From a virus: DNA of 64,000 nucleotides. The notes below the pieces were generated by a model. The model saw only the letters and a list, made by a program, of their open reading frames with translations, was not told the origin of the DNA and did not search any database. Location: positions 96,001 to 160,000 of IMG/VR virus record IMGVR_UViG_3300032246_002821; one strand, 5' to 3'. The position numbers and the translations under genes are program-made. Within the stretch, counting starts at the first letter, position 1; each line of letters begins with the position of its first letter. This document shows positions 35,314 to 53,187 of the stretch, piece after piece.

Positions 35314-35321
35314 TTAACTAT

Positions 35322-36056: not shown

Positions 36057-36904
36057 ATCATCGCGGGGCCAGAGCCATACCAGATGCAGATCACAGGAAC
36101 TTTTTCCAGTCATTAAACGTGATGAAAAGTCTATATGATACAGATCTGCCTGTGAGATTTGCCAAGAAATTCCAGCGTTGGATCACAAATAATCGTTTGA
36201 ACAGTTTGGAATCCCTGAGCCAATATCAGCACATCAGCCTGTGTGCTGGCACCAGCCAGGCGTTCGATCATTTTTACATCAAACATCACACCAGGCGTTT
36301 CCGCACATTAACTGGGGAGTTCATGTATCACAGGGCTGTGTTCAAGCAAGGATACAAACATCTGGATTATCCTCTGGCGCCACTAGATCCCAACGATGCA
36401 GTGATAATCAGCGTACCTTTCAGCGACCTGGGCAGCAAGCATCCTGATACCAACGAGATACTGCGCCGTTGCAGCGAGATGGGTGTGCCTGTGCTGCTGG
36501 ATATGGCCTATGTGGTTTGCAGCAAAAACATAGTCATAGATCTGGACCAGAGCTGCATAGACACTGTGGTATTCAGTCTCAGTAAGATGTTGTATGGTGC
36601 GGAAAACCTGCGTGTGGGAATCAGATTCCAGAAGACCAACAGCGACGATGGCATAGATGTGTTCAACAGTGTGGGGATGAACAATAGGCTGGACATCGCT
36701 GTGGCTGAGCAGATCATCGACACATTTAAACCAGATTACATCTGGGGACGCTACAGTGAGAAATATCAGAAAGTGATCAAAGATATGGGCCTACAGGCCA
36801 CAGACTGCATAATGTTCGGATTAGATGATCAGGACCGTTATCCGGAATTGAATCGCGGCAATAAAACCAATCGCGTTTGTATAAGTGATCAGCTATGCAC
36901 ATAA
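36053..36904 (+). CDS. PLP-dependent transferase (fold type I)
   Basis: LLDMAY (Asp), VFSLSK (Schiff-base Lys), RVGIRF. Confidence 0.75.
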   Translation: MNHRGARAIPDADHRNFFQSLNVMKSLYDTDLPVRFAKKFQRWITNNRLNSLESLSQYQHISLCAGTSQAFDHFYIKHHTRRFRTLTGEFMYHRAVFKQGYKHLDYPLAPLDPNDAVIISVPFSDLGSKHPDTNEILRRCSEMGVPVLLDMAYVVCSKNIVIDLDQSCIDTVVFSLSKMLYGAENLRVGIRFQKTNSDDGIDVFNSVGMNNRLDIAVAEQIIDTFKPDYIWGRYSEKYQKVIKDMGLQATDCIMFGLDDQDRYPELNRGNKTNRVCISDQLCT

Positions 36905-38004
36905 CAGCCACAGACAGATACACTTTTTTCACCTTCAATAATCCCGAGCGTAGCTATCCTGCCAGGGACATCGTGGCCAACAGATATACAGGTCCAGATC
37001 ATTGTCTGATAATAGACATCTATAGCATCAATTTCAGAGAGGACAAACAATTCCAGCATATCCTGGATCATATGACGCCTTATTTCCGAGCAGATAAAAG
37101 GCATAGATTGATAATAGATGCTGCCTATGAGGCACCCACATATCGTTATCATCTCAAGACGTTCATGGATTGGATGGCAGACAATGCTGGTATACCACTG
37201 GCAGATCAGGTGATCTTTGGCGGAAGCCAACACCAATTCGATGATCCCATAAATTTTGCCCTATGCAACAGCATGGCTATTACCCATATGGTGCTGAAAG
37301 ACAGCACATATGATCTGGTACCGGAACATCATTATATTAGTCTAGCCAGGATAGTCAAACGCCATCGTTTGCTCACCACAGTGGAGATCCTGGACAGGGG
37401 ATTGGAACCCTATGGCTATATGAGCCTGGGCAGTGGTTATTACAACAGGGAGGGCGAAAACAGTCTGCTGTGGAGAGAGACTCCAGACAGATACAAGGAC
37501 AAATTCCCCTTGTATATAGAAGGGCTGATAGCACCAGGGGCACTGGCAGAAAATCAACACTATGCAGCTGACCCCAAAATGACATTGGCATTTTGCAACG
37601 TGGTACAGGAAACCAGTTATGATGCCGAAATCACACCTAGCAACTGGAACACACCTTTCATAACAGAGAAAAGCACCAAACCCTTCGCCTGGGGACAGGT
37701 TCCTGTGTATGTTGCCACATCAGGGCACGTCAGCTTTGTACGCCAACTGGGTTTCGATATGTTCGATGATATAATAGATCACGGTTATGATAATGAACAC
37801 GACGGCCGCAGACGCATATTGATGGCAGTGGATCAATTACAAAAGATCTGTGAATTGCCCATAGAGCACTGGCAGCAATACAAACAGCAAAACATTGAAA
37901 GGTTCCGACGTAACCGTGAGATAGCGCATAATCTGTATGCCAACAACCAAGAAACAATGGTCAGACCCAACACAGAAAATTTACTACGGGTTCTGGATTT
38001 ATAA
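36895..38004 (+). CDS. Glycosyltransferase-like protein (SEK/TEK family, copy 3)
   Basis: FCNVVQETS...FITEKSTKPFAWGQVP...GFDMFDDIIDHGYD; close paralogue of 34207-35313. Confidence 0.55.
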   Translation: MHITATDRYTFFTFNNPERSYPARDIVANRYTGPDHCLIIDIYSINFREDKQFQHILDHMTPYFRADKRHRLIIDAAYEAPTYRYHLKTFMDWMADNAGIPLADQVIFGGSQHQFDDPINFALCNSMAITHMVLKDSTYDLVPEHHYISLARIVKRHRLLTTVEILDRGLEPYGYMSLGSGYYNREGENSLLWRETPDRYKDKFPLYIEGLIAPGALAENQHYAADPKMTLAFCNVVQETSYDAEITPSNWNTPFITEKSTKPFAWGQVPVYVATSGHVSFVRQLGFDMFDDIIDHGYDNEHDGRRRILMAVDQLQKICELPIEHWQQYKQQNIERFRRNREIAHNLYANNQETMVRPNTENLLRVLDL

Positions 38005-38012
38005 ATATTTTT

Positions 38013-39167
38013 ATGAAACTTTCAATGATAGGATTGGGTAAACTAGGTTTGCCCTGCGCCACCGAAATGGCTCGAAAACATCAGGTTCGTGGTTATGATG
38101 TCAGCTTCATACCCACCGTATTTCCCCAGGCAGCAAGCATAGCGGATTGCATCAAGGACAGTGAATTCATATTCATTGCTGTGCCCACACCGCACGAAAC
38201 AGGTTACGGGGGCGAGACACCCACCAGCCATCTGCCTGTGAAAGATTTCGATTATACACTGGTCAAGCAAGTGCTGACAGAGATCGCCCAGCACAAGACA
38301 CCAGACCAACAGGTGGTATTGATCAGCACTGTATTGCCAGGCACCACCAGGCGCGAGCTGGCTCCTATTATTCCCGACATCATCTATAATCCCTATCTGA
38401 TAGCAGTGGGCACAGTGGCGGCAGACTTCGTGGATCCGGAAATGGTGATAATAGGTTCTGATGCCAATCCCAATGTGCCCAGATTGATAGAACTATACAA
38501 GAGTGTGCTGGTACCAGAAGCCAGATACGAAACAGGCACCTGGGAAGATGCCGAGGCCATAAAGATTTTTTACAACACATTCGCCAGCATGAAACTGGGG
38601 TTTGCCAATATGATTATGGATGTGGCCCTGGGTATTGGGCATATGGATCTGGCTAACATTACCAATGCACTGAGCAACAGCACCAAGCGCATAATGAGCA
38701 GCAAATATATGACGCCGGGCCTGGGCGATGGGGGTGCTTGCCATCCCCGAGATAATATCGCTCTGAGATGGTTGAGCGATAGGCTGGATCTGGGTTATGA
38801 TATGTTCGGAGAGATAATGCGTACTCGTGAAGTGCAGGCACGTAGATTGGCCGAACGCCTGTGCAGCTACGAATTACCTGTGGTGATACTGGGCAAAAGC
38901 TATAAAGAGAATGTGCATAACACAGATGGCAGTTACGGTCTGCTGGTGGGTCATTATGTGGAAAAACTGGCTGGCAATGTGAATTACGTGGATCCGCTCA
39001 ACAATACCGATTACGTGGCCAAGACAGCCAGCACGTTCTTGATCAGTTACCATCATGATTGGATATCAGATTATGCAGATTATCCCGCAGGCAGCATCAT
39101 AGTGGATCCCTGGCGTAGGAATCTGCAGATACCAGGATGCCGGGTGGTCAACCTTGGACAAGTTTGA
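38013..39167 (+). CDS. UDP-glucose/GDP-mannose 6-dehydrogenase family protein
   Basis: IGLGKLG Rossmann motif, IAVPTP, STVLPGT, YNP, AEAIKIFYNT, GDGGACHPRD, LGKSYK. Confidence 0.92.
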   Translation: MKLSMIGLGKLGLPCATEMARKHQVRGYDVSFIPTVFPQAASIADCIKDSEFIFIAVPTPHETGYGGETPTSHLPVKDFDYTLVKQVLTEIAQHKTPDQQVVLISTVLPGTTRRELAPIIPDIIYNPYLIAVGTVAADFVDPEMVIIGSDANPNVPRLIELYKSVLVPEARYETGTWEDAEAIKIFYNTFASMKLGFANMIMDVALGIGHMDLANITNALSNSTKRIMSSKYMTPGLGDGGACHPRDNIALRWLSDRLDLGYDMFGEIMRTREVQARRLAERLCSYELPVVILGKSYKENVHNTDGSYGLLVGHYVEKLAGNVNYVDPLNNTDYVAKTASTFLISYHHDWISDYADYPAGSIIVDPWRRNLQIPGCRVVNLGQV

Positions 39168-40254
39168 ATACCTGTGGGGTCAACACGAGAAAAATCTCGC
39201 AGATGTCCTGGAAGTATGGGCACGAACATTTCCTCCTGATAGCTTGGTAGCGGATCTGGTACAAAATGATGGCAGCGATGGATTCAATGATATCGCAGAT
39301 CTCATAGCATCCAGACTAGCACCAGGACAGACAGTGATACTGACCCATACCTGGGAGGCTGCTGAAAATTATTTGCTGGGCATAGCAGCGCGGTTATATC
39401 ACAAAGGCATAGGCAGGGATCGCATCGTGGTGATCTGCTGCGGTTATCCCAAAAAATTATATCAGCAAACCATAATAGAATACGCCAGATTATACCATCT
39501 GCCTTACTTCCTGGTACGCACCTATAACAACAACAGTTGCCTGACACCTGGCGCCAAAAAACCAGGTTTCATCTGCCTCAACCGCAGGCCCAAATTCCCA
39601 CGCAGTTATCTCATCAGCTGCTTGCTGGATCTGGGACTGGCGGATCATTGCAGCTGGGCTGGCAAAGACATCTACTTCAATGTGGGACCGGTGAGCGATT
39701 ATACCAAACAAAAGATAGACAGCGTGATGAACCTGGATCATGCACGGTCTCAATTGGACGATGGTCGATTTACCAGGTATCTCAACAACTGGCAGTGGTT
39801 CTCGTCGGCACACCACATCTCCAGCGACATCTATCCCAATGTGAATGACCACAGCACCAACAGCCCAGTGTACAACCATCTGATAAATGTCATCAGCGAA
39901 ACCTATTGCGACGATAGCAACGAAGACGGCGTGGATGCCGATGGTTTTCATAGTATATTCCTCACGGAAAAGACCTACAAGAGCATCTATGCCAAGCAGA
40001 TATTCCTGATCCAAAACAGTTGCCATACTCTTGATTATCTTAGAATGATGGGATTCAAGACATTTGAAATGCTGGATCAAAGTTATGACCGTATTCCAGA
40101 TGTCATCACACGCACGGAGAAATTAATAGATGTGCTACAGGATTGTCTGCAAAATGCAGATTTGAATATAATGACCTGCACAATACGAAATCACAATCAC
40201 AACCATATGATATCACTGGTGGAATCAGGCACATATTTGCTTGACTTAAATTAA
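39154..40254 (+). CDS. Glycosyltransferase-like protein (SEK/TEK family, copy 4)
   Basis: FICLNRRPK...INVISET...FLTEKTYKSI...GFKTF...DQSYD. Confidence 0.55.
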   Translation: MDKFEYLWGQHEKNLADVLEVWARTFPPDSLVADLVQNDGSDGFNDIADLIASRLAPGQTVILTHTWEAAENYLLGIAARLYHKGIGRDRIVVICCGYPKKLYQQTIIEYARLYHLPYFLVRTYNNNSCLTPGAKKPGFICLNRRPKFPRSYLISCLLDLGLADHCSWAGKDIYFNVGPVSDYTKQKIDSVMNLDHARSQLDDGRFTRYLNNWQWFSSAHHISSDIYPNVNDHSTNSPVYNHLINVISETYCDDSNEDGVDADGFHSIFLTEKTYKSIYAKQIFLIQNSCHTLDYLRMMGFKTFEMLDQSYDRIPDVITRTEKLIDVLQDCLQNADLNIMTCTIRNHNHNHMISLVESGTYLLDLN

Positions 40255-40268
40255 GATGATGCTATAAT
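40241..40268 (+). promoter_or_regulatory. Sigma70-type promoter TTGACT-N16-TATAAT
   Basis: Overlaps the end of the upstream CDS, directly before the ATG at 40275. Confidence 0.7.
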
Positions 40269-40274
40269 CGCCAT

Positions 40275-41132
40275 ATGAAGATTCAAATTGTCAGTGACTT
40301 ACATCTGGAACACCGCAATGACCTACCCGTGCTGCACAATGCTGGGGCTGATGTGCTGATATTGGCTGGCGACATCTGCCAGGCAGAAGATCTGTATCGT
40401 AATCCCCGTGATAAATTCACAGTGGATGGTCAAGTTGCCGATCTGTCACAGGTGATGACCGGTGATTGGCGTGGCTGGGATGCCAGACGTTTCCGTGAGT
40501 TCTTCCAGCATTGCAGCGATAACTGGCCACACGTGCTGTATGTGTCAGGTAACCACGAACATTATGATGGTCGTTGGGAGCGCACATCAGATATCCTACG
40601 CACAGAGATGGCACATTACCACAATATCCATTTTATGGATCAGGACAGCATTACCATAGATGGTATCAGGTTCCTGGGTGTGCCATTGTGGACCAGTTTC
40701 AAAGATGCAGATCCCAATGTGATGTGGGCTGTGAAAAGCTACATGAGCGACTACCGCTGGATCAAACACTTCAATGCAGGTCAGTGGGGCAGGTTGCGTC
40801 CCCAGGATACCTTGGCCAAACATCAGAGCGATGTCAGTTGGCTGACAGATCAACTTGCAATGGATCACACGCCCACGGTCATCATAGGGCATCACGCACC
40901 CAGCTATCAGAGCATCCACGAGATGTATCGCAACCAGGCGGATATGAACTATGCTTTTTGCAGCAGCCTGGATCATATGATGGTCACAAATTATCATATC
41001 CGACTATGGGTCCACGGTCACGTCCACAACTGTTTCGATTATTCAATCAATCAGGCACGTGTGGTGTGCAATCCCCTGGGTTACCCATCAGAGACCACAG
41101 GATTTGATCCTGCATTGGTTGTGGAAGTTTAG
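40275..41132 (+). CDS. Calcineurin-like metallophosphoesterase
   Basis: SDLHLE, LAGDI, SGNHE, GHHAP, HGHVH. Confidence 0.92.
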   Translation: MKIQIVSDLHLEHRNDLPVLHNAGADVLILAGDICQAEDLYRNPRDKFTVDGQVADLSQVMTGDWRGWDARRFREFFQHCSDNWPHVLYVSGNHEHYDGRWERTSDILRTEMAHYHNIHFMDQDSITIDGIRFLGVPLWTSFKDADPNVMWAVKSYMSDYRWIKHFNAGQWGRLRPQDTLAKHQSDVSWLTDQLAMDHTPTVIIGHHAPSYQSIHEMYRNQADMNYAFCSSLDHMMVTNYHIRLWVHGHVHNCFDYSINQARVVCNPLGYPSETTGFDPALVVEV

Positions 41133-41633: not shown

Positions 41634-42017
41634 TTGTTACCAGTACCCTATCACCCTGCACAAGTGCAGCGATATTTCCACGAATACCACAATTATGAGT
41701 ATTTTCCACAAGCCGAAGCCATCGAAGTTCGCGAGTACCGCAGGATCGATCCTGCTGACGTCAAAGCCCGTATCCTGGATTATCTGGGAGAGGTGCTGGC
41801 TCGTTGCTGGTGCAACAAGGACCTTATGGCACTGCTCAAGCAGAATCCCCACGAGTGTTTGCTTCAGTTGGGCATCATCCTGCCGGAAGAGCTGAACATC
41901 CTGGTGGAAGAACGCCGGAATAATCCCAATCGTCCCAGATTGGTTGTGTATGAAAAGCAGGGCAAGATGACCAAACGTGTGTGCCACCTGCAACTGATGA
42001 TGACCGCTGGCAGGTAG
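41634..42017 (+). CDS. Nitrile-hydratase-like leader peptide (NHLP) domain protein
   Basis: LARCWCNKDLMALLKQNPHECLLQLGIILPEELNILVEE fits AxAWxDxxFxxxLxxDPxxxLxxxGxxxPxxxxIxVxE. Confidence 0.6.
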   Translation: MLPVPYHPAQVQRYFHEYHNYEYFPQAEAIEVREYRRIDPADVKARILDYLGEVLARCWCNKDLMALLKQNPHECLLQLGIILPEELNILVEERRNNPNRPRLVVYEKQGKMTKRVCHLQLMMTAGR

Positions 42018-42052
42018 TTTCTGCATACCAGATGTCACAGGAAAAATGTCGA

Positions 42053-42086
42053 TTGTAATATGATTGTAACATTCGTAATCCATAAT
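42053..42086 (+). promoter_or_regulatory. Pho-box-like direct repeat TTGTAAT-ATGA-TTGTAAC plus -10 CATAAT
   Basis: 7-nt repeats at an 11-nt period, 10 nt upstream of a -10-like hexamer, ahead of olsB. Confidence 0.65.
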
Positions 42087-42111
42087 ACGGTAAGTAAACG
42101 AAGAGGTTTGA

Positions 42112-43020
42112 ATGATGCAACCCGTATTTCCAGATTTTAAATTCATGATAAATGCTTTAAATCGCGATCTGGAAAAGAGTATATTTGGTAAGATACCTTT
42201 CGTCATACCCAAGAGTTATACGGTGGTGCTGGGTCGCATAGGTGATCTGGAGATCCGGCTGGCACAGACTCGTAAAGAGATCAAGCAAGCACAGAAACTC
42301 AGGTATCGTATATTCTTCAAAGAGCAAGGTGCCATCGCCACATTAGAGGCGATGATGAAACAGAGAGACATAGATCCATATGATGCATATTGTGATCATC
42401 TACTGGTGGTGGATACGAAGTATCCTAGAAAGAAGATGCCAGGAGTTAAAGAACTTTATAAAGAACAAGTGGTAGGCACCTATCGCCTACTCAGACAAGA
42501 TGTAGCAGAAAAGTATTCGGGTTTCTACAGCCAAACAGAGTTTGATGTAGCGGCCTTGATCCAGCGACACCCAGGCAAGCGTTTCTTAGAGCTAGGGCGT
42601 AGCTGCGTTGATAGCGCATACCGCGACAAACGCACCATAGAACTATTGTGGCGTGGCATCTGGTGGTATGTGAACGAGTGTAAGATAGATGCCTTGTTCG
42701 GCTGTGCCAGTTTCGAAGGCACAGATGTTAAAAAATTGTCTGAACAACTGAGCTTGCTACAAGATGCTGCCAGTGCTGCACCTGAATGGCAAACCCAGGC
42801 ACATCGTTCGGATTATGACAACACAGATAGGGTGACAGATTATGATGCTAAAAAAGTGTTGCATCAGTTGCCCACACTGATAAAAGGTTATATGCGCTGT
42901 GGTGCCAGGTTCGGCACAGGCGCTGTGATAGATAGAGAATTCAATACCACCGATGTGCTAGTGGTATTGCCTGTCACAGACATCACACCCAGATATCGTG
43001 AACACTTTACCATGCAGTGA
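42112..43020 (+). CDS. olsB: Ornithine-acyl-ACP N-acyltransferase (OlsB-like GNAT)
   Basis: AQKLRYRIF, DPYDAYCDHLLV, VGTYRLL, FYSQTEFD, LELGRSCV..AYR, LLWRGI, LFGCASF, LIKGYMRCGA, IDREFNTTDVLVVL. Confidence 0.9.
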   Translation: MMQPVFPDFKFMINALNRDLEKSIFGKIPFVIPKSYTVVLGRIGDLEIRLAQTRKEIKQAQKLRYRIFFKEQGAIATLEAMMKQRDIDPYDAYCDHLLVVDTKYPRKKMPGVKELYKEQVVGTYRLLRQDVAEKYSGFYSQTEFDVAALIQRHPGKRFLELGRSCVDSAYRDKRTIELLWRGIWWYVNECKIDALFGCASFEGTDVKKLSEQLSLLQDAASAAPEWQTQAHRSDYDNTDRVTDYDAKKVLHQLPTLIKGYMRCGARFGTGAVIDREFNTTDVLVVLPVTDITPRYREHFTMQ

Positions 43021-43043
43021 AAAAATATTTTTAATATCAGTGA

Positions 43044-43061
43044 TTGTAACACGATTGTAAT
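43044..43061 (+). promoter_or_regulatory. Second Pho-box-like repeat TTGTAAC-ACGA-TTGTAAT
   Basis: Same heptamers and 11-nt period as 42053-42070. Confidence 0.6.
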
Positions 43062-43126
43062 ATTGCCGGTCTTAAATATTTGTGGTAGATGGTCTACCGC
43101 TTTTATTTTTTCCCAGGGGAAACAAA

Positions 43127-43441
43127 ATGAATCTTGATATGGTTGAACACGGTCTAGTGGTTAGTGTTAGTTTTGCGGAAGCAGACGATTTCGACAATGG
43201 TCCTGTTCTGGCAGCTATCAATGCTCTTGTAGAAGCATTGAAAGATTGTGCAGAAGTTAGTGTAAGCATCAGCAGCGAATATGTTGATGATAATGAAGAA
43301 GACTTAGTCCAGGAAGATGCAGATGATGAATTCGCTGATGATCAAGAAGATGATGAAGCAGATGAATCAGAACATGATGCAGAAGATGCATCAGAAGATA
43401 CAGATGCTGATGCAGAACACAAAGAAGATGACTTGCACTAA
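43127..43441 (+). CDS. Small highly acidic protein
   Basis: Likely start MNLDM after CAGGGGA; D/E-rich C-terminal half. Confidence 0.7.
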   Translation: MNLDMVEHGLVVSVSFAEADDFDNGPVLAAINALVEALKDCAEVSVSISSEYVDDNEEDLVQEDADDEFADDQEDDEADESEHDAEDASEDTDADAEHKEDDLH

Positions 43442-43467
43442 CAGCGTGATTTGAACTCGACAAATCC

Positions 43468-43497
43468 AGAGCAGTATGTTATACTGCTCTTTTTTTT
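43468..43497 (+). terminator. Intrinsic terminator
   Basis: AGAGCAGTAT-GTT-ATACTGCTCT followed by a T run. Confidence 0.85.
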
Positions 43498-43511
43498 GGT
43501 AAATAGCAGAC

Positions 43512-44285
43512 ATGAAACAATACAAAAGCATATTCATCAGCGACGTACACCTGGGCACCAAAGGCAGCAAAGCCGAACTATTACTGGCATTCCTACGAGA
43601 AGTAGAATGTGAAAACCTGTTCCTGGTGGGAGACATCCTGGACGGTTGGAGGATGAAGAAAAACTGGTACTGGAACGAACACCACAGCACAGTGGTGCAG
43701 AAGATACTCAGGATGGCTCGTAAAGGCACAAAAGTTTATTATATCCCTGGCAATCACGACGATTTTATGCGTGAATTCTTGGAATATAATTTCGGTAGCA
43801 TAGAGCTGCACAACGAAATGATTTATACAGGCGTCAATGGCAATCAATACATTGTGATACATGGTGACAAGTTCGATATCGTGACACTGAATGCCAAATG
43901 GCTAGCACACATCGGGGACTGGGCCTATACAGCTCTATTGGATCTCAACACAACATTGCATTGGGTAATGCACAAGCTAAAGTTGCCCTATTGGAGCCTG
44001 AGCAAATGGGCCAAGAACCAGGTCAAGCAGGCTGTCAGCTTTGTAGGAGATTATGAAACCAGTCTGGTGAATTATGCCAGGTTGAAAAAAGCAGACGGCA
44101 TCATATGTGGACACATCCACAGTGCCCGGATAGGAATGATTAACGATATAGAATACATGAACTCAGGCGACTGGGTGGAGAGTTGCACGGCCCTGGTTGA
44201 ACATACCGATGGTCTCTGGGAGATAATTACTTGGACAACAGACACTGATGTGGTTATTGATACTACTGGCAGTCAAGATAGGTGA
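43512..44285 (+). CDS. plcP: LpxH-family metallophosphoesterase, PlcP-type phospholipase C
   Basis: SDVHLG, LFLVGDILDGW, W...HSTVVQKIL, YIPGNHD, IHGDKFD, CGHIH, NSGDWVESCTAL; lies upstream of a GT4 gene as in plcP-agt operons. Confidence 0.75.
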   Translation: MKQYKSIFISDVHLGTKGSKAELLLAFLREVECENLFLVGDILDGWRMKKNWYWNEHHSTVVQKILRMARKGTKVYYIPGNHDDFMREFLEYNFGSIELHNEMIYTGVNGNQYIVIHGDKFDIVTLNAKWLAHIGDWAYTALLDLNTTLHWVMHKLKLPYWSLSKWAKNQVKQAVSFVGDYETSLVNYARLKKADGIICGHIHSARIGMINDIEYMNSGDWVESCTALVEHTDGLWEIITWTTDTDVVIDTTGSQDR

Positions 44286-44481
44286 TCCTGCAGATGTTCC
44301 TGGTCGTGTGACCCTGGAATTTCCCACAGAGCAAGCCTGTCAGGCCAGTTTGAAAACAATGACCTATTGGTTGAAATTCGATAGTTTCAAAGTCACAGGA
44401 GCCTGCAAAAGAAATGAAAATAACACTGGTAACAGACACCTGGAAACCCAGCATAAATGGGGTAGTGACAACACTAACTAA
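44248..44481 (+). CDS. Small hypothetical protein
   Basis: Bridges plcP and the GT4 gene with overlaps. Confidence 0.45.
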   Translation: MWLLILLAVKIGDPADVPGRVTLEFPTEQACQASLKTMTYWLKFDSFKVTGACKRNENNTGNRHLETQHKWGSDNTN

Positions 44482-45424
44482 CACCGTACAGCATCTCATA
44501 CAGCAGGGTCATGATGTACAGATCATAGAGCCTGGCCAGTTTCACACTGTAGGTGCACCTGGATATGCGGAAGTCAGACTCAGCTGGAACCTGTGGCAAG
44601 TGGGCCGGATGATCGAACAGTTCGATCCTGATGCCATACACATCGCCACAGAAGGTCCACTGGGATTAGCAGCCAGATGGTACTGCAAGGTGGAAAAGCG
44701 TAGCATACCACACAACACCAGCTATCACACCAAGTTTCCTGAATATCTCTATCAGCATTATCACATACCGGAAAGCTGGACCTATCGCTGTATGCGGGTG
44801 TTCCACAAGTTCAGCACCCGTGTGCTGGTGACCAATCAGGATATGATGACCGATCTCGGTGAACGTGGTTTTGAAAATCTCAGCATCTGGAATCGTGGTG
44901 TGGATCGTGAGCTATATCATCCTGATCGTCGTCGTAGGCTCAGCTATCGCAGGCCCATAATACTGTGTGTTAGCCGTGTCAGTAAAGAAAAAGGACTGGA
45001 CGACTTCTGCAGTCTACGTGTCAAAGGCACCAAAGTACTTGTGGGAGATGGACCTATACTTCCGGAATTGAAAAGACGTTATCCAGATGTGGTATTCGCA
45101 GGTGCCAAGACAGGTACTGCACTGGCTGAATACTATGCTGCCGCGGATGTATTCGTGTTTCCCAGCCAGACCGATACTTTCGGTGTGGTGATGTTGGAAA
45201 GTATAGCGTCAGGTACACCTGTGGCTGCTTACCCTGTGACAGGTCCCCGAGACGTGGTGATAAATGACGTCAACGGTTACATGGATTCAGACTTGACTGT
45301 TGCTGTGGAACGTGCTATGTTATGTGATAGAGTGGCGGTCAGGAACAGCAGCGAGCAATACGACTGGGCAGCTTGCACCGAAACTTTTGTAAAAAATCTG
45401 AAAATAATCGAAAAAAATAGTTGA
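44414..45424 (+). CDS. GT4 glycosyltransferase, Agt-like diacylglycerol glycosyltransferase
   Basis: LVTDTWKPSINGVVTTL, IHIATEGPLG, SYHTKFPEY, RGVD, VSRVSKEK, VFPSQTDTFGVVMLESIASGTPVAAYPVTGP. Confidence 0.85.
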   Translation: MKITLVTDTWKPSINGVVTTLTNTVQHLIQQGHDVQIIEPGQFHTVGAPGYAEVRLSWNLWQVGRMIEQFDPDAIHIATEGPLGLAARWYCKVEKRSIPHNTSYHTKFPEYLYQHYHIPESWTYRCMRVFHKFSTRVLVTNQDMMTDLGERGFENLSIWNRGVDRELYHPDRRRRLSYRRPIILCVSRVSKEKGLDDFCSLRVKGTKVLVGDGPILPELKRRYPDVVFAGAKTGTALAEYYAAADVFVFPSQTDTFGVVMLESIASGTPVAAYPVTGPRDVVINDVNGYMDSDLTVAVERAMLCDRVAVRNSSEQYDWAACTETFVKNLKIIEKNS

Positions 45425-45755: not shown

Positions 45756-45832
45756 CCGCCCTTAGATAACGCTGGCTATATCACTACCCTTTCAAGGTAG
45801 AGTAACGGGATCGACACCCGTAGGGCGGACCA
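45756..45832 (+). tRNA. tRNA-Glu(TTC)
   Basis: CCGCCCT/AGGGCGG acceptor, CTACC-CTTTCAA-GGTAG, encoded CCA. Confidence 0.88.
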
Positions 45833-45838
45833 GTTAAA

Positions 45839-45913
45839 GGACCAGTAGTTCAGAGGGAGAACAACCGACTCTTAATCGGTGTGTCGCAGGTTCGATCCCT
45901 GCCTGGTCTGCCA
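45839..45913 (+). tRNA. tRNA-Lys(CTT)
   Basis: ACCGA-CTCTTAA-TCGGT, TTCGA T-loop, CCA. Confidence 0.93.
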
Positions 45914-45964
45914 ATATTGACTTTATCAGTGACATTGTATAAAATCAAAGAAAAGGACAATGTT

Positions 45965-46672
45965 ATGGATATATTTTGGAGTGTGGCAGAATGTGCCAGC
46001 ATACCACATATAAGTTATGAAGAACCCAGGCCGGTTTTGGCAGAAATATCAAAAACCATTCCTGAGTTCCAAAATCCAAAAAACCGTATAACCAGCTGCC
46101 CTGCTTTCCGTGACAGTTGTAAAAACACCTATAGTTTACACGTACCCATAGAGTATGAATTGACTTATGCTAATAACGACATCAGCACCACAATGTGGGA
46201 CAGAGAATTTTTTACAGATGTGGTCACAGTCAGAGATTTCAAATATCCCAACTGGACCAGTATGCAGTTCAAATACATATTTGTTGCAGAGGGAGATCTG
46301 GAAATAGAAGTGCTGCCTTGTTTCCTGACTAGCAACAGTTTCACAGACAATGCAGACATCATACCTGGCCGGATGAACATTGGCAAATGGTTCAGACCTG
46401 TGGAATGTGCGTTCGTAGTTAAGTCAGGCGACAGGACCATAACATTCAACCAGGGCGATGCATACAGTTTTGTCAGGTTTTTGACTGATGAAAAGATCCG
46501 TTTACGTAGGTTTTTCATGACACCCGAATTGAATCACATCACCAGCAGCAACATAAGCGCCAGAGATTACAAACGCAGATTGAATCCGCTGAGTTATTTT
46601 TACAATCTGTACGAACGCAGCCATATGCACAGCAAAGTGCTAAAAGAAGTAAAAAATAACCTGATGGAATGA
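45965..46672 (+). CDS. Hypothetical protein (beta-rich)
   Basis: Likely start MDIFW after AAGGA; promoter TTGACT-N17-TAAAAT at 45917-45945. Confidence 0.65.
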   Translation: MDIFWSVAECASIPHISYEEPRPVLAEISKTIPEFQNPKNRITSCPAFRDSCKNTYSLHVPIEYELTYANNDISTTMWDREFFTDVVTVRDFKYPNWTSMQFKYIFVAEGDLEIEVLPCFLTSNSFTDNADIIPGRMNIGKWFRPVECAFVVKSGDRTITFNQGDAYSFVRFLTDEKIRLRRFFMTPELNHITSSNISARDYKRRLNPLSYFYNLYERSHMHSKVLKEVKNNLME

Positions 46673-46814
46673 GTTGTGGGTGGAGGTAACCCTCAGTGGA
46701 GCAGGCCACTCAGAAACCATCCTGCTGAGTAGGATCCATCACAGGATCTGGGCAAGGGCGATCATAAGCCAGTGTGGCAGCGGTAGAGGGGGCTGGTCAC
46801 ACACTAAATATCCG

Positions 46815-47123
46815 ATGCGTATAGCCGAGATATTGACAGAATTGGATTTCATGGGCAGTCCTTGCACCAAAGATTGCAGTGGACACCAGGCAGGTTATAT
46901 GTGGAGCCTGAACAAGGGCGGCAAGGTTGCCAACAGCTGGAGCAACAGTTTCAACAACGGTGCTGCCATAGGTCACAAACAGGCCACACAGCGTCCACAG
47001 GGCGGAGGTAAACGTGCTGGTTATACCAGCCAGACTCCAGGTGCTATGAGACGCAGGAATCAGAGATTGGCTGCACAACAGGCTGCTCAGGCAGCGGCAG
47101 CACAACAACCACCACAAGTTTAA
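46815..47123 (+). CDS. Small CTS-bearing protein (CTKDCSGH motif)
   Basis: CTAAATA upstream; starts MRIAEILTE; the ORF track extends it to 46674. Confidence 0.6.
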   Translation: MRIAEILTELDFMGSPCTKDCSGHQAGYMWSLNKGGKVANSWSNSFNNGAAIGHKQATQRPQGGGKRAGYTSQTPGAMRRRNQRLAAQQAAQAAAAQQPPQV

Positions 47124-47133
47124 AACTTTATAT

Positions 47134-47208
47134 GTAGGGATAGTTTAATAGGCAAAATCTTGGTCTCCAAAACCAAAGTTCCCAGATCGTTGCTGGGTCC
47201 CTATGCCA
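47134..47208 (+). tRNA. tRNA-Trp(CCA)
   Basis: TTGGT-CTCCAAA-ACCAA; GTAGGGA/TCCCTAT acceptor; non-canonical T-loop ATCGTTG; CCA. Confidence 0.85.
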
Positions 47209-47377
47209 TTACACTGTTACAAACCCTCCAAGTGATAGCGATCTTGTCATAGGTTTTGTAACATTTTCACTTGGGCAGGCCTGCTAAACTATGATCTGCC
47301 TCCGCCACACACGAAACGCAGGATGGGCTGTGTGTGCCAGGCTGTGGAGTGCCTGAACAAATACTCCACACTAATTT
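47209..47377 (+). ncRNA. Candidate structured RNA with pseudoknot potential
   Basis: TGTTACAAA/TTTGTAACA, CCAAGTGA/TCACTTGG, GGCAG/CTGCC, CACACAC/GTGTGTG, TGTGGAGT/ACTCCACA. Confidence 0.45.
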
Positions 47378-47451
47378 GGTCTGGTGTCGGAGTGGTTACG
47401 GAGCGGTCTGCAAAACCGCCTACGAGAGTTCGATTCTCTCCCAGACCTCCA
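47378..47451 (+). tRNA. tRNA-Cys(GCA)
   Basis: GCGGT-CTGCAAA-ACCGC; U73; CCA. Confidence 0.93.
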
Positions 47452-47455
47452 ATCT

Positions 47456-47531
47456 GCTTAGATAGCTCAGCTGGTAGAACACTGCGCTGAAGACGCAGGT
47501 GTCAGCGGTTCGATCCCGTTTCTAAGCACCA
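47456..47531 (+). tRNA. tRNA-Phe(GAA)
   Basis: CTGCG-CTGAAGA-CGCAG; CCA. Confidence 0.95.
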
Positions 47532-47532
47532 T

Positions 47533-47609
47533 ACACCCTTAGCTCAGCTGGATAGAGCATCTGACTACGAATCAGAAGGCCGGGAGTTCGAATCTCTCAG
47601 GGTGTGCCA
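47533..47609 (+). tRNA. tRNA-Arg(ACG)
   Basis: TCTGA-CTACGAA-TCAGA; CCA. Confidence 0.95.
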
Positions 47610-47669
47610 AAAATAAGTATTGACATATATGTTAGATGTAGTAATATGACATATACAGGAGATTAGGCG

Positions 47670-48095
47670 ATGATGGAATGTTTGATCTTGGGCGACAGCA
47701 TCGGACGCGGCATCAGCAGTGTCATGCGCGATTGTGTTCAAATCACAGAAATCGGCATCAATACTGATAACTGGTACAAGAAATATCACGATCGTCCCAT
47801 ATTCGATATGCAACAATATCGGTATGTGGTGGTCAGTCTGGGATCCAACGACATCGCAGATAGCAGTGCCACCATGCGCCGCATACGCAAGAAATTCAGT
47901 GCTGCCAAAGTCATATGGGTATTGCCCAGCGATCAGGTCAAAGCGCCACAGCGAGCCATAGTGGAAAATGTAGCTGCAGAATTTGGCGATTGGGTTTTAA
48001 GTATCACTGACCGGGTGGGGGCGGACAAGGTGCACCCACCCACAGTGGAAGCATATGAAAAGATAGCAAAAAACATAAAGGACAGTGTAAAATGA
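47670..48095 (+). CDS. SGNH/GDSL hydrolase-like protein
   Basis: LILGDSIGRG, VSLGSND, DKVHP; promoter TTGACA-N16-TAATAT at 47620-47647. Confidence 0.8.
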   Translation: MMECLILGDSIGRGISSVMRDCVQITEIGINTDNWYKKYHDRPIFDMQQYRYVVVSLGSNDIADSSATMRRIRKKFSAAKVIWVLPSDQVKAPQRAIVENVAAEFGDWVLSITDRVGADKVHPPTVEAYEKIAKNIKDSVK

Positions 48096-48427
48096 TCAAG
48101 CGTATTGTTATGGCTACCTGTTTGATTGCATCACCAGCTGTTGCGGAAACCTGGGCCACTGCTGATTGCACGTTGGCCAACGGTGGCAAGATCCGCTACG
48201 CGGTACACGACAGCAAAGGTTTTATCTCTTATGATGGAGAAGGACCCTATGAGATGTTTACCAAACGCGATGGTAATATGGGCATTGTCACACACATCGG
48301 CAACCGTGGTAACACAGTGTTGGCAGTGGATCTGGATAGCGGCCGAGGGTATATTATCACCAAGTTTGATAATGGTCACACCAGAGAAATGAATGTCAGT
48401 TGCCGTTTGGGCGTCACAGAAAAATAA
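48092..48427 (+). CDS. Small secreted/periplasmic beta-rich protein
   Basis: Signal peptide MIKRIVMATCLIASPAVA. Confidence 0.7.
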   Translation: MIKRIVMATCLIASPAVAETWATADCTLANGGKIRYAVHDSKGFISYDGEGPYEMFTKRDGNMGIVTHIGNRGNTVLAVDLDSGRGYIITKFDNGHTREMNVSCRLGVTEK

Positions 48428-48431
48428 CCGG

Positions 48432-48459
48432 TTGACAACTATCTTAACTGTGTTATATT
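48432..48459 (+). promoter_or_regulatory. Sigma70-type promoter TTGACA-N11-TGTGT-TATATT
   Basis: Upstream of tRNA-Asp. Confidence 0.75.
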
Positions 48460-48474
48460 CATAATATAGAGTTT

Positions 48475-48551
48475 GGTCAAGTAGCTCAGTTGGTTAGAGT
48501 GCCGGCCTGTCACGCCGGAGGTCGCGGGTTCGAGCCCCGTCTTGATCGCCA
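48475..48551 (+). tRNA. tRNA-Asp(GTC)
   Basis: CCGGC-CTGTCAC-GCCGG; G73; CCA. Confidence 0.95.
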
Positions 48552-48555
48552 AATT

Positions 48556-48790
48556 AGAGTCGCTGGATTACTATAGAGACGGTCACCGCGGTCTGTCTCT
48601 TGTGCGTACCAGTGCTGGAGGCCCGTCAAACCAGCATAAACAAACGTGGCAGGAATTGGCAAGGGGAACTACTCGGCAGTCGCATCGCAAGATGTCGCAA
48701 CGGAGCCCCTTGCCGTCGAGGCCAGAGGGATTGTAGGTGGACCTGTATTATATGCCCTTGGGGTGTTGTGACTGGGCTTGTAACCTTCAT
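48556..48790 (+). ncRNA. Candidate multi-helix ncRNA (~230 nt)
   Basis: AGAGACGG/CTGTCTCT, TGCTGG/CCAGCA, GGCAAGGGG/CCCCTTGCC, GCATC-GCAA-GATGT, terminal AGTCGC/GTGACT. Confidence 0.55.
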
Positions 48791-48799
48791 AAATTTTAA

Positions 48800-48875
48800 G
48801 AACCCATAGCTCAGTAGGTAGAGCACCTGACTTTTAATCAGGGTGTCGCCGGTTCGACCCCGGCTGGGTTCACCA
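48800..48875 (+). tRNA. tRNA-Lys(TTT)
   Basis: CCTGA-CTTTTAA-TCAGG; CCA. Confidence 0.95.
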
Positions 48876-48876
48876 A

Positions 48877-49107
48877 TTATGCAAACTTGCTGGCTATGCT
48901 GATAGCAGTTATCAACGCAGCTTTAACGGCCATATCGTCAGCTTCTTCGTTCAAACGATCGGTTGCGATAAGGTCTTCCATAAGTTCAGCTGCTTCTTCA
49001 GGTGATAATGCGCCTGAGTTGCGTTGCTTCTGGATGTCTAGGGCCATCTTAGCGCGAGTTTCTGCCCAACCTGATCCGCAGTGTGCTAGTTCTTGTAGTG
49101 ATGCCAT
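48877..49107 (-). CDS. Small helical hypothetical protein
   Basis: Coupled to the lipoprotein gene. Confidence 0.65.
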   Translation of the reverse strand: MASLQELAHCGSGWAETRAKMALDIQKQRNSGALSPEEAAELMEDLIATDRLNEEADDMAVKAALITAISIASKFA

Positions 49108-49499
49108 TAGAATCTCCCTAAAACGGCTTTGCTTGATAGTTCAGCTTGTTTAACTAATATGTCTTTCTTAATCCGGCAATAGGCAGCACTGGGTTCTTTT
49201 TCTTTGCTACGGTCTGCCCATTCGTTCACTGTCTTTTGCATAGGAGCGATCAGTTCCAGCACATCGTGTTGCAGATAGCCTTTGCTCTCGCTGTACAGTT
49301 CAAACCATTGAAGTTCTTTTTGTATTTGTACAGCTTGAAAGTTTTGTGTATCTTCACAGTTGATGTTAACAATCAGTTGTCTGGCTGTTATGATGCTCCT
49401 GGATTGGTTGTCATCCCAGAAGCTGGGCACGAATGTTGCTACCGTTGCATTGCAACCGGCTAATACTAAGAAACTCAATACCGCGATGATTTTTTGCAT
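49107..49499 (-). CDS. Lipoprotein
   Basis: Lipobox LAGC at residues 13-16; CTAAATA upstream. Confidence 0.75.
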   Translation of the reverse strand: MQKIIAVLSFLVLAGCNATVATFVPSFWDDNQSRSIITARQLIVNINCEDTQNFQAVQIQKELQWFELYSESKGYLQHDVLELIAPMQKTVNEWADRSKEKEPSAAYCRIKKDILVKQAELSSKAVLGRF

Positions 49500-49530
49500 A
49501 CAGTATTTAGTTTTTGATAACTACCATAAC

Positions 49531-49606
49531 GCCCAATTAGCTCAGATGGTAGAGCAGTTGATTAGTAATCATCAGGTCGGCGGTTCGAATCCGTCATTGG
49601 GCACCA
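49531..49606 (+). tRNA. tRNA-Thr(AGT)
   Basis: GCCCAAT/ATTGGGC acceptor; GTTGA-TTAGTAA-TCATC anticodon arm (one mismatch); CCA. Confidence 0.85.
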
Positions 49607-49621
49607 TTATTAAGGTTCGCT

Positions 49622-50740
49622 ATGTTCGTAAAATGCATCAGGATGGAAGCCTATTTCGGAGCCAGTTATAACTTCGAAAGATTGAAGGAAAATATACAAA
49701 AAGATCTGGCACAGACAAGAGCAGCTGGTACTGAACCCTATTTCTTCCTCAGTTATTGTTGGGAGAATTTTCCTGAATTCTATTGGTACGACAATGTCAC
49801 TCAAAATATCCGTAGCATATTGAAAGACCTGGGCATAACACATTATAAATTCGTGTTTCCCACCAGTTTTTTACACAATAGATATCCAGTGTACACTGGC
49901 CAGATAGACCAGTCGGATATGATCTTCCTGGAGTTTTTTGCTCTATACAGTTTCCATAAGATATTCGGAGATCAAAAGAAATATCGCAGCTGGAATTATT
50001 CGGGAGAGGTGTTGGCCAATCCTGCCTGGAACAGTGACAGCGATCGCGCCCTGTTGCTATTGGGCAAGATAGCCAAATTGAACCGTATGCCATTGCTGGC
50101 CGAATTCTACAGAGCCAATAACCTGTCGCGCATAGACTGGAGTTTGTATCTGAACGATAACATCAAAGCCGATGCCAGGCATCTGGCCCCAGAATTTACA
50201 GATGAGGAATATGAAATATTCATATCCCAGATGACCAAGAGACTGGATCCCATAGACGTGCAGATGCAGGAACGCAGCAGCCATTACTGGGGTTTTCCTT
50301 ATGATGTAAACTTATACAAAAACACTTGCCTGAGTGTCATAAGCGAAACCAACTTCATGTATAACCAGACAGTGTGGGTTACAGAAAAAACCTATCGTGC
50401 CATAGCCAATAGGCATCCTTTCGTCATGGCTGCGCCTCCTGGTAGTTTGAAATACATCAAGACCCTGGGTTTCAAGACTTTCGAAGAATATATGCAGATA
50501 ACAGATTATGATGATATAGAATATGACAAGCAAAGATTGGGCAGTATAATGACCAATACCATGTATTTTCTTGATACTAAACACACAAATCTAGAAGAGA
50601 TAAATGCAGATGTGGAGCATAACTACCAGAACCTTATAGATTTCGTCGATAGGGAAATTTTAAAACTTGACAAAGTGCTGGATTCAGTGCATAATAGACA
50701 GGATAAAGAAACAAGTTGGTCCTTATTGGCCCAGATGTAA
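49622..50740 (+). CDS. Glycosyltransferase-like protein (SEK/TEK family, copy 5)
   Basis: LSVISET...WVTEKTYRAIANRHPF...GFKTFEEY...DYD. Confidence 0.55.
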   Translation: MFVKCIRMEAYFGASYNFERLKENIQKDLAQTRAAGTEPYFFLSYCWENFPEFYWYDNVTQNIRSILKDLGITHYKFVFPTSFLHNRYPVYTGQIDQSDMIFLEFFALYSFHKIFGDQKKYRSWNYSGEVLANPAWNSDSDRALLLLGKIAKLNRMPLLAEFYRANNLSRIDWSLYLNDNIKADARHLAPEFTDEEYEIFISQMTKRLDPIDVQMQERSSHYWGFPYDVNLYKNTCLSVISETNFMYNQTVWVTEKTYRAIANRHPFVMAAPPGSLKYIKTLGFKTFEEYMQITDYDDIEYDKQRLGSIMTNTMYFLDTKHTNLEEINADVEHNYQNLIDFVDREILKLDKVLDSVHNRQDKETSWSLLAQM

Positions 50741-50742
50741 TT

Positions 50743-50817
50743 GCGGTTGTAGCTCAGTGGTAGAGCGTCACGTTGCCAACGTGAATGTCGTCGGTTCGAC
50801 CCCGATCAGCCGCTCCA
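50743..50817 (+). tRNA. tRNA-Gly(GCC)
   Basis: TCACG-TTGCCAA-CGTGA; U73; CCA; promoter TTGACA-N17-CATAAT at 50667-50695. Confidence 0.95.
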
Positions 50818-50821
50818 ATTT

Positions 50822-50895
50822 TACTGCTGTCGGTGTTGATGGGAAACACAGATGGACAACACTAGGACACCGTTCGAATCGGAGCAGCAGTACCT
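50822..50895 (+). pseudogene. tRNA-like element with a stub anticodon arm
   Basis: TACTGCTG/CAGCAGTA acceptor, GTGT/ACAC D-stem, TTCGAAT T-loop; ends ACCT rather than CCA. Confidence 0.55.
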
Positions 50896-50900
50896 GATTA

Positions 50901-50974
50901 GCGGGCTTGGTATAGTGGTATTATGACAGCCTTCCAAGCTGACGAGACGGGTTCGATTCCCGTAGCCCGCTCCA
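50901..50974 (+). tRNA. tRNA-Gly(TCC)
   Basis: ACAGC-CTTCCAA-GCTGA; U73; CCA. Confidence 0.95.
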
Positions 50975-50980
50975 AAATTT

Positions 50981-51054
50981 GCTGTCTTGGTGTAATGGAA
51001 GCACACGAGTTTGTGGAACTCGTAGCACAGGATCGATACCTGTAGACAGTGCCA
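50981..51054 (+). tRNA. tRNA-His(GTG)
   Basis: CGAGT-TTGTGGA-ACTCG; CCA; no encoded G-1, G at position 73. Confidence 0.88.
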
Positions 51055-51059
51055 TATAA

Positions 51060-51142
51060 GGGGCGGAAGTATCAAGGTGATACCGTGGACTGTAAATCCA
51101 CCGCTTATAGCACGCCTGGTTCGATTCCAGGACGCCCCACCA
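51060..51142 (+). tRNA. tRNA-Tyr(GTA)
   Basis: GTGGA-CTGTAAA-TCCAC; long variable region; CCA. Confidence 0.93.
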
Positions 51143-51182
51143 CTACACACTAAATAAAAGGTCAATTGAACAAAGGTCATCA

Positions 51183-51827
51183 ATGAAAGGCAAGATAGCC
51201 TTATTCCTGCACCAGCCCAAATGCTCGGTACAATCGGGCAATGGAATTATGCAGGCATTGCATCCAGATTATCAGTTCAAGATCTTCACAAAACATCGAG
51301 TGGAAAAAGATTTCTTCGATGATGTGGATATGATCGCTGTGCCAGGAGGACTGGGAGACAGCGACAGCTATGCCAGTCTGATGCGTGAAAACGCTGGTCG
51401 CATACAGGACTTTGTTGCTAAAGGTGGCAGGTACTTGGGTATCTGTATGGGTGCTTACTGGGCAGGATATCACTATCTAGACATACTAGACGGCGTCCGA
51501 GCCTATCAATATATCACACGCCCCAACACAGACACTCGTAGACCACACGCCAAAGCCATAGACGTGGATTGGCTGGGACAACCAGAGAAGATGTACTTCT
51601 ATGATGGCCCAGCATTGGTGGGCGATAAAAACAAGTTTACCACCGTCAGCACATACGTAAACGGTGACGCCATGGCCATATATCAGGATCGTATAGGACT
51701 GATAGGTTGCCATCCTGAGGCAAATCTGCACTGGTACCAGGCATATCCCTATATGCTCAAACACTGGCATAAAGGTGCTCATTACAGTTTGTTGAAAGAT
51801 TTTGTTGACAAACTGATGCTTCAGTAG
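51183..51827 (+). CDS. Class I glutamine amidotransferase-like protein (BPL_N family)
   Basis: IAVPGG, FVAKGGRYLGICMGAYWAG, FYDGP, IGCHPE. Confidence 0.85.
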   Translation: MKGKIALFLHQPKCSVQSGNGIMQALHPDYQFKIFTKHRVEKDFFDDVDMIAVPGGLGDSDSYASLMRENAGRIQDFVAKGGRYLGICMGAYWAGYHYLDILDGVRAYQYITRPNTDTRRPHAKAIDVDWLGQPEKMYFYDGPALVGDKNKFTTVSTYVNGDAMAIYQDRIGLIGCHPEANLHWYQAYPYMLKHWHKGAHYSLLKDFVDKLMLQ

Positions 51828-51842
51828 TATTATAAGGAATAT

Positions 51843-51919: not shown

Positions 51920-51924
51920 AGTTA

Positions 51925-53171: not shown

Positions 53172-53187
53172 ACTGATATATATTAAT

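Follow-up and report, generated by a model that had tools for sequence, protein, structure and literature searches.

The window analysed here, 64,000 bp spanning bases 96,001–160,000 of the 182,953-bp IMG/VR virus record IMGVR_UViG_3300032246_002821, carries three intact, co-oriented open reading frames (ORFs) on the plus strand. The first, olsB (42112–43020, 302 aa), is assigned by a family model to the ornithine (aminolipid) N-acyltransferases, which perform the first step of ornithine-lipid synthesis. The second, plcP (43512–44285, 257 aa), encodes a metallophosphoesterase of the LpxH superfamily and of the PlcP (phospholipase C) type. The third (44414–45424, 336 aa) starts 128 bp beyond the end of plcP and encodes a glycosyltransferase of family GT4 of the agt type, that is, of the diacylglycerol glucosyl/glucuronosyl transferase type. 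A first-pass annotation had located three co-oriented genes here and had read them as a phage-borne module for lipid remodelling under phosphate starvation; the genes lie where it put them, and its overall reading holds up as an inference from sequence. The interval it gave begins at 42020 and also covers a Pho-box-like direct repeat at 42053–42070. We consider it likely that the cluster serves to swap host phospholipids for phosphorus-free lipids, in part under the control of host PhoB, and thereby to feed nucleotide synthesis.

By its gene content the 183-kb fragment is a true jumbo myophage. The record encodes a tail tube, a tail sheath of 1,124 aa (4e-187) and a large terminase (phrog_36964, 7e-117) that shares 54% identity with its counterpart in the Pseudomonas jumbo phage PA5oct and about 50% with those in Sinorhizobium phage Phosso and Agrobacterium phage Atu_ph07. 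CheckV places the completeness of the record at about 54%, which implies a full genome near 340 kb. An array of 22 tRNA genes with interspersed small ORFs (45756–54962, plus strand) starts 330 bp past the module. Since the terminase, the tail genes and the tRNA array are all present, olsB, plcP and the GT4 gene lie inside a real phage genome.

The olsB product contains a GNAT domain of the Acetyltransf_5 family (PF13444, 1.5e-29) and scores 335.4 bits (336.4 in a second search) against the NCBIfam OlsB equivalog NF052555, above the curated cut-off of 320 bits, which confirms the initial call of an OlsB-type GNAT. When 23 OlsB sequences, phage-type and cellular, are aligned, 75 columns are invariant. 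The phage sequences, represented by some 20 protein-collection clusters sharing 66–95% identity, form one clade with 100% support, and this clade is nested among the OlsB proteins of Hyphomicrobiales (Microvirga, Bosea, Hyphomicrobium) at 49–57% identity. No olsB relative was found among 50,697 deposited phage records, no PHROGs family exists for the gene, and close copies in IMG/VR are limited to two other contigs, with nine more coming from a scan of JGI metagenomes. Judging by these searches, olsB is the rare part of the module and is confined to one phage lineage. Three viral contigs (L006–L008; IMG/VR contigs 3300044230–3300044233) carry a distant OlsB-like GNAT with 31–35% identity.

The phosphoesterase displays the Pfam Metallophos domain (7.8e-12) of calcineurin-like metallophosphoesterases, and its motifs DxH, GD, GNHD, HGD and GHxH (D11/H13, G40-D41, G80-N81-H82-D83, H117, G200-H201 and H203) are invariant across 25 sequences. 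Its best NCBIfam matches are the LpxH equivalogs NF003743 (52.5 bits against a cut-off of 134) and TIGR01854 (46.6 bits against 190.35), both below cut-off, and only the N-terminal half of the protein matches solved LpxH structures, with 27 bits. The best 80 cellular loci for plcP, by comparison, are full-length matches with 49–56% identity; nearly all are alphaproteobacterial, with Agrobacterium tumefaciens, Rhizobium, Bradyrhizobium, Azospirillum and Caulobacter among them. Of these loci, 55 have a GT4 gene, 41–49% identical to that of the phage, directly downstream of plcP. A Pho-box site (TGTCAY-N5-TGTCAY with at most two mismatches, within 300 bp upstream) precedes the gene in 61 of the 80, mostly at −70 to −100, against a background of 0.03 expected per equal length.

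E. coli LpxH, from L171, served to root the phylogenetic trees of PlcP and forms a very long, remote outgroup branch in each. All 68 viral sequences of the full tree fall into one clade (Shimodaira–Hasegawa-like approximate likelihood ratio test, SH-aLRT, 97), sister to a Rhodospirillales/Caulobacter group, and the subset of 27 viral sequences in a quick tree under a site-heterogeneous mixture model is also monophyletic, with support of 98. The first-pass annotation had proposed to set PlcP against LpxH in this way: family models, trees, synteny and Pho boxes place the phosphoesterase apart from true LpxH and group it with alphaproteobacterial plcP. The PlcP-type assignment is thus supported by orthology to alphaproteobacterial plcP–agt operons rather than by direct comparison with a characterised PlcP.

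The third protein follows the two-domain GT4 layout, with Glyco_transf_4 (PF13439) and Glycos_transf_1 (PF00534/PF13692) domains, and no NCBIfam model comes near its cut-off. Wei et al. define an Agt/GTcp clade of GT4, two-domain enzymes of about 334 aa marked by the motifs FPSxTDTFG, with Asp for the usual GT4 Glu, and GRVAxEKN (PMC8231724). The phage protein contains FPSQTDTFG at residues 249–257, the diagnostic Asp254 included, and this Asp is found in all 28 viral and in 52 of 54 cellular plcP-linked GT4s. In GTcp, mutagenesis of Gly16, Gly82, Gly85, His104, Arg163, Arg190, Lys195, Asp256, Thr257, Phe258, Gly259, Glu264 and Trp320 abolishes activity or nearly so (PMC8231724). Counterparts of all 13 residues are present in the phage GT4 (G16, G81, G84, H105, R161, R188, K193, D254, T255, F256, G257, E262 and W318), matched through position and motif rather than by aligning GTcp; across 82 sequences (28 viral, 54 cellular) these columns vary little or not at all. 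Viral and cellular GT4s are split by a single branch with support of 99. In one A. tumefaciens genome there is just one strong homologue (46% identity, 303 bits; the runner-up reaches 27 bits), located about 0.6 Mb from plcP, a candidate for Agt atu2297. The Agt-type call made at first reading stands: the phage gene is the syntenic counterpart of bacterial agt and keeps the Agt/GTcp residues essential by mutagenesis (PMC8231724), which supports its placement in the Agt/GTcp clade type.

A survey of viral contigs for this synteny, which had been suggested as a check, recovered the same arrangement, with pstS inserted in relatives; the module is present in at least 11 other related contigs. A 305-aa PBP_like_2 protein (PstS, 1.9e-38) is encoded between olsB and plcP in L004, L005, L173 and L175–L178. 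The window, L172 and L174 hold a D/E-rich ORF of about 100 aa in that slot, without pstS, and L005 has both. The remaining genes of the olsB contigs match genes scattered over the record of the window phage, tail sheath included, and these shared scattered genes place the olsB contigs in one phage lineage, with the module moving around within it. In contig L005 (IMGVR_UViG_3300002091_000847), plcP (10261–11040) is only 58% identical to the window plcP and belongs to another viral subclade, and the olsB and GT4 copies are 74–75% identical to those of the window; plcP has apparently been exchanged within the module there.

The module genes are under purifying selection. The ratio of non-synonymous to synonymous substitution rates (dN/dS), computed between the window and L004, is 0.107 for olsB, 0.058 for plcP and 0.096 for the GT4 gene. 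As expected of auxiliary metabolic genes, the three are accompanied by phage hallmarks and a tRNA array, recur in related contigs and show low dN/dS (0.06–0.11). Trees group the viral copies of all three genes apart from cellular ones, PlcP and GT4 each via one supported branch. No olsB occurs within 6 kb of plcP in any of the 80 cellular loci, and the three-gene combination therefore seems to have been assembled in phages.

Relatives of plcP occupy at least 277 loci in IMG/VR. Among 80 such loci sampled, about a third (27) have a GT4 gene directly downstream and 6 have pstS nearby. In Pelagibacter phage Mosig the gene is 50% identical and adjoins the phage's own pstS, and it is labelled UDP-2,3-diacylglucosamine hydrolase; the relative in Synechococcus phage S-SRM01 is labelled UDP-2,3-diacylglucosamine hydrolase/LpxH. 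The whole module had been taken at first reading to indicate a proteobacterial, probably alphaproteobacterial host. What remains of this is that the host is perhaps alphaproteobacterial within a proteobacterial range, as suggested by the nesting of olsB in Hyphomicrobiales and by the terminase relatives, the only two pointers; plcP and the GT4 gene, placed in a pan-viral clade that includes a cyanophage, carry little information on the host.

A PhoB-dependent promoter has two 7-bp direct repeats 11 bp apart in place of the −35 element, 10 bp upstream of the −10 hexamer. Two sites in the window fit this geometry. The first, TTGTAAT-ATGA-TTGTAAC (42053–42070, plus strand), is followed 10 bp on by the −10-like CATAAT (42081–42086) and lies about 40 bp before the olsB start. 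The second, TTGTAAC-ACGA-TTGTAAT (43044–43061, plus strand), stands after olsB and is followed 10 bp on by the −10-like TTAAAT (43072–43077). The pattern TTGTAAY-N4-TTGTAAY has exactly two matches in the 183-kb record, both on the plus strand; the pattern was derived from the window sequence itself, so the count alone proves little, and the comparison among relatives provides independent evidence. The site before olsB is retained in all 11 related contigs as a 7-4-7 repeat, a 10-bp spacer and a −10-like hexamer in diverged flanking sequence. Its half-sites vary among TTGTAAT/TTGTAAC, CTGTAAT/CTGTAAT, TTGTCAT/CTGTYAT (near the canonical Pho box) and TTGTAAT/CCGTCAT, so that relatives show the same geometry with TGTCAT-type half-sites. 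A second site follows olsB or pstS in most relatives, being less clear in L176 and L178; it reads TTGTCAT-CATA-GTGTCAT in L005 and L175 and TTGTAAC-ACGA-CTGTTAC in L174, in each case with 10 bp and TTAAAT. These conserved sites make Pho control of olsB, and of pstS in relatives, a well supported prediction.

The signals near plcP are of another kind. Directly after the second Pho-like site lies a terminator-like hairpin with a T run (43082–43100, plus strand), and a further terminator-like hairpin with a 10-bp stem and T8 (43468–43490, plus strand) is located between a small acidic ORF and plcP. The latter hairpin is overlapped by a sigma-70-like promoter (43457–43485, plus strand), which is followed by GGTAAATAG, and the motif GGTAAATA is found just before plcP and recurs at the same place in several other viral loci. 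From these elements it seems that plcP–GT4 are served by separate promoter signals. None of 59 viral loci has a strict Pho box in the 250 bp upstream of plcP, and most viral plcP genes are preceded by other coding sequence or a TAAATA-type motif. The Pho-like sites of the window would accordingly be expected to control olsB and the small acidic ORF rather than, demonstrably, plcP–GT4. The window carries, at 43499–43507, a motif of the (G)GTAAATA / TATAAATA type that resembles T4-type late promoters; in many viral loci such a motif stands 8–15 nt before the plcP start codon, as upstream of plcP in L005, L016, L017, L020, L022, L024, L026, L029 and L065.

Family-level gene identities, residence in a phage, synteny, conserved operator-like sites and purifying selection are the observations from which a course of events can be proposed. 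In bacteria the pathway and its phosphorus-saving role are established (PMC4796936, PMC12971839). We infer the enzyme steps of the phage version from family membership and from this bacterial pathway, and its regulation from the conserved sites. The phosphate-starvation regulator PhoB of the host would turn on olsB, and pstS in the sister phages, via Pho-box promoters. PlcP would remove the phosphate head group from glycerophospholipids, yielding diacylglycerol, which the Agt-type GT4 would convert to glycolipids with UDP-glucose or UDP-glucuronate, preserving the bilayer. OlsB would N-acylate ornithine with a 3-hydroxyacyl chain, and OlsA of the host would then complete the ornithine lipid. 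After the action of host phosphatases, the head-group phosphate would supply nucleotide synthesis for the genome of about 340 kb when phosphate is scarce. By such a route the phage probably draws phosphorus from the host membrane to build DNA. The location of pstS inside the module of sister phages, and beside plcP in Mosig, ties the module to phosphate stress. Gao et al. reportedly found in 2004 that the limiting step in S. meliloti, and one regulated by phosphate, is OlsB, and this would explain why the phage might need olsB only.

Several points weigh against this account. The purpose, phosphate for replication, and all of the enzyme activities are deduced from sequence. Family searches of the 183-kb record, which covers about 54% of the genome, revealed neither pstS nor phoH, and neither an alkaline phosphatase nor a phosphate porin; a phage phosphatase that could act on the head groups was likewise not recognised in it. 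The absence of olsA from the window, reported at first reading, extends to the whole record, where no olsA-type acyltransferase (PF01553) is found; OlsB alone would be expected to produce a lyso-lipid only, unless the host supplies OlsA. The stem of the phage OlsB clade is long (0.91 changes per site), so the amino-acid specificity may have shifted and a substrate other than ornithine is possible. In the GT4, the first UDP-sugar motif reads SRVSKEKG (187–194) against GRVAxEKN: the essential Arg and Lys are kept and three other positions differ, and even the relaxed motif GR[VIL]xxEKN is matched by only 7 of 28 viral GT4s. The half-sites in the window are TGTAAY, the canonical form being TGTCAY. 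Two hairpins stand between plcP and the closest Pho-like site of the window, which lies 450 bp upstream of it, so the claim of Pho control stops short of plcP–GT4.

The same enzymes might instead benefit the phage by altering the cell surface, through outer-membrane proteins or charge, and so block superinfection or adjust lysis and the stability of the membrane. Ruegeria pomeroyi that has lost its aminolipids shows less phage attachment and a reshaped membrane proteome (PMC9938194), viral plcP is accompanied by a small virus-specific protein of membrane type, and the apparent promoter signals of plcP–GT4 do not include a Pho box. The sites conserved before olsB and the position of pstS in sister phages and in Mosig point, on the other hand, to phosphate stress, and we regard a surface effect in place of phosphorus supply as unlikely. 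The two benefits are not exclusive and may coexist.

Less probable still is that OlsB acts alone, producing a surfactant-like single-chain lyso-ornithine lipid that perturbs the membrane, as a lysis aid or for exclusion, and that does not serve as a bulk substitute. The lack of a PlsC/OlsA-type acyltransferase in the record and the long stem of the phage OlsB would fit such a role, and lyso-ornithine lipid is described as a biosurfactant (PMC11279095). Against it, the record covers little more than half of the genome, hosts with OlsBA provide OlsA, and olsB is co-located with pstS and plcP–agt behind a Pho-type promoter.

It is very improbable that the cluster modifies lipid A or lipopolysaccharide (LPS), with a true LpxH as its phosphoesterase and an LPS glycosyltransferase as its GT4. 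The phosphoesterase and LpxH share a common fold family, and the deposited annotations of Mosig and S-SRM01, together with JGI names, do read UDP-2,3-diacylglucosamine hydrolase/LpxH. The phage protein, however, stays far below both equivalog cut-offs, matches solved LpxH by its N-terminal half only and lies a very long branch away from the E. coli LpxH outgroup; the Asp that marks the Agt clade is present in the GT4, and the closest cellular relatives are plcP–agt operons behind Pho boxes. Close cellular homologues exist for all three genes (50–57% identity), but host DNA joined by mis-assembly, or a recent non-functional capture, is hardly credible given the recurrence of the module in at least 11 related contigs whose other genes, tail sheath included, match this phage, the separate grouping of the viral copies of each gene, the low dN/dS, and the phage genes and tRNA array on both flanks.

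Replacement of phospholipids with phosphorus-free lipids, as proposed above, could involve further products of the locus. A small ORF (44248–44481, plus strand) overlaps the end of plcP and the start of the GT4 gene, and its first 56 codons are virus-specific. The protein they encode has a hydrophobic N terminus, the motif PGR..LEF, two conserved Cys and the motif YWLKFD; it is 46–77% identical in 10 viral plcP loci, two of them without GT4, and none of the 80 cellular plcP loci has it. The stop of this ORF overlaps the GT4 start (ATGA) in L005; the window has lost the stop, and the frame runs on for 21 codons. The acidic (D/E-rich) ORF of 104 aa (43127–43441, plus strand), which takes the position of pstS in relatives, has no family match; L172 and L174 retain it. 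In many unrelated viral loci, a similarly D/E-rich ORF stops immediately ahead of plcP (L005, L036, L042, L057–L059, L077, L079). The 490-bp gap between olsB and plcP in the window contains no pstS remnant.

Upstream of olsB, a conserved ORF of 127 aa (41634–42017, plus strand) has no Pfam or PHROG match; it also adjoins olsB on the upstream side in the closest relatives (L004, L172, L174, L179 and L180), where it is 86–99% identical, and its dN/dS is 0.08. A language-model Atlas gives a weak lead (0.82) to a nitrile-hydratase-alpha/NHLP-leader-like domain in this ORF, and a radical SAM/SPASM protein is encoded at 53152–54240. Further upstream lies a co-oriented cluster (34168–41132, plus strand) that includes three ORFs without a match, a 2OG-Fe(II) oxygenase (35289–36056, plus strand), a weakly aminotransferase-like ORF (36053–36904, plus strand), a divergent nucleotide-sugar (UDP-sugar) dehydrogenase-like gene (38013–39167, plus strand; 143.8 bits, cut-off 189.8) and a metallophosphoesterase of the common phage family phrog_1649 (40275–41132, plus strand). 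The dehydrogenase-like gene was considered as a supplier of UDP-glucuronate to the GT4 and set aside, being below its family cut-off and not located beside the module in relatives. The metallophosphoesterase was likewise rejected as the head-group phosphatase: its family is common, it has no informative solved relative, and it is unlinked to the module in L005. A DNA methyltransferase gene (31897–32829, plus strand; phrog_67, 1e-55) follows a 459-aa ORF without a match.

A wider picture, which we offer tentatively as possible more than probable, is that the phage lineage runs a three-armed lipid swap, with an ornithine-type aminolipid and with glucosyl and glucuronosyl glycolipids, under the phosphate-starvation regulator of the host and with virus-specific helpers, namely the acidic protein encoded ahead of plcP and the small membrane protein with two cysteines encoded behind it. 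In phosphate-poor waters, the phospholipid of membranes would on this view form a phosphorus store under phage control, large enough to matter quantitatively, and the widespread viral 'lpxH' of virome surveys would represent the PlcP pathway. If true, freeing membrane phosphorus and rebuilding the membrane with sugar and amino-acid lipids would be a strategy distinct from external phosphate uptake, and it would bear on the phosphorus demand of DNA in large phages and on lipid signatures in phosphate-poor waters. To judge by the olsB arm, phages are able to combine distinct bacterial lipid pathways in a single module under starvation control. For annotation, a correction appears to be due: two cultured phages and no fewer than 277 viral contigs carry a plcP-type gene that deposited records and JGI names label as the lipid A gene lpxH.

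The enzymes come from known families; what is new is their setting in a phage, together with the olsB arm and the accessory ORFs specific to viruses. Our literature search found no paper pairing plcP with auxiliary metabolic genes, or olsB with phage auxiliary metabolic genes. The genome papers of Mosig and S-SRM01 and a pelagimyophage survey make no mention of a plcP-type gene, the survey reading phage glycosyltransferases and UDP-glucose dehydrogenase as O-antigen modification, and phage-encoded copies go unmentioned in a review of lipid renovation in Pseudomonas and phage therapy.

The closest known system is the bacterial PlcP–Agt operon, exemplified by PlcP and Agt/GTcp of SAR11 HTCC7211 (PMC8231724) and by Agt atu2297 of A. 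tumefaciens. Sebastian et al. 2016 described the 'type 2' plcP→agt layout with Pho boxes, and the plcP pathway has been proven by deletion in Phaeobacter MED193, with SAR11 agt making monoglucosyl diacylglycerol (MGDG) together with glucuronosyl diacylglycerol (GADG) in E. coli (PMC4796936). The phage locus has the same two families in the same order and orientation, and its proteins keep the metallophosphoesterase motifs and the catalytic and binding residues of the Agt clade. It differs in being encoded by a virus, on separate supported branches, in the virus-specific small protein between plcP and the GT4 gene, in the altered first UDP motif of the GT4, and in the addition of olsB, a neighbour seen in 0 of 80 cellular loci. 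PhoB-regulated ornithine-lipid synthesis in bacteria is matched by an olsB gene that exceeds the equivalog cut-off behind a Pho-box-type promoter; the phage record lacks the OlsA partner, and the phage gene belongs to its own long-stemmed clade. With LpxH the phage PlcP shares the metallophosphoesterase superfamily and the metal-binding motifs common to both, but it falls below both equivalog cut-offs and is phylogenetically remote.

Among viruses, cyanophage lipid desaturases and coccolithovirus sphingolipid synthesis likewise use virus enzymes to rewrite host membrane lipids; the enzymes, lipids and trigger are different, and to our knowledge none of these systems removes lipid phosphorus. 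The pstS, phoA and phoH genes of cyanophages and pelagiphages resemble the module in being host-derived, linked to phosphate scarcity and preceded by Pho-box-type promoters, and phage phosphate-stress genes are said to be controlled through the PhoB of the host, as Zeng and Chisholm reportedly found in 2012. Those genes improve the uptake or scavenging of external phosphate, whereas the lipid module described here would mobilise phosphorus already held in the membrane and rebuild that membrane.

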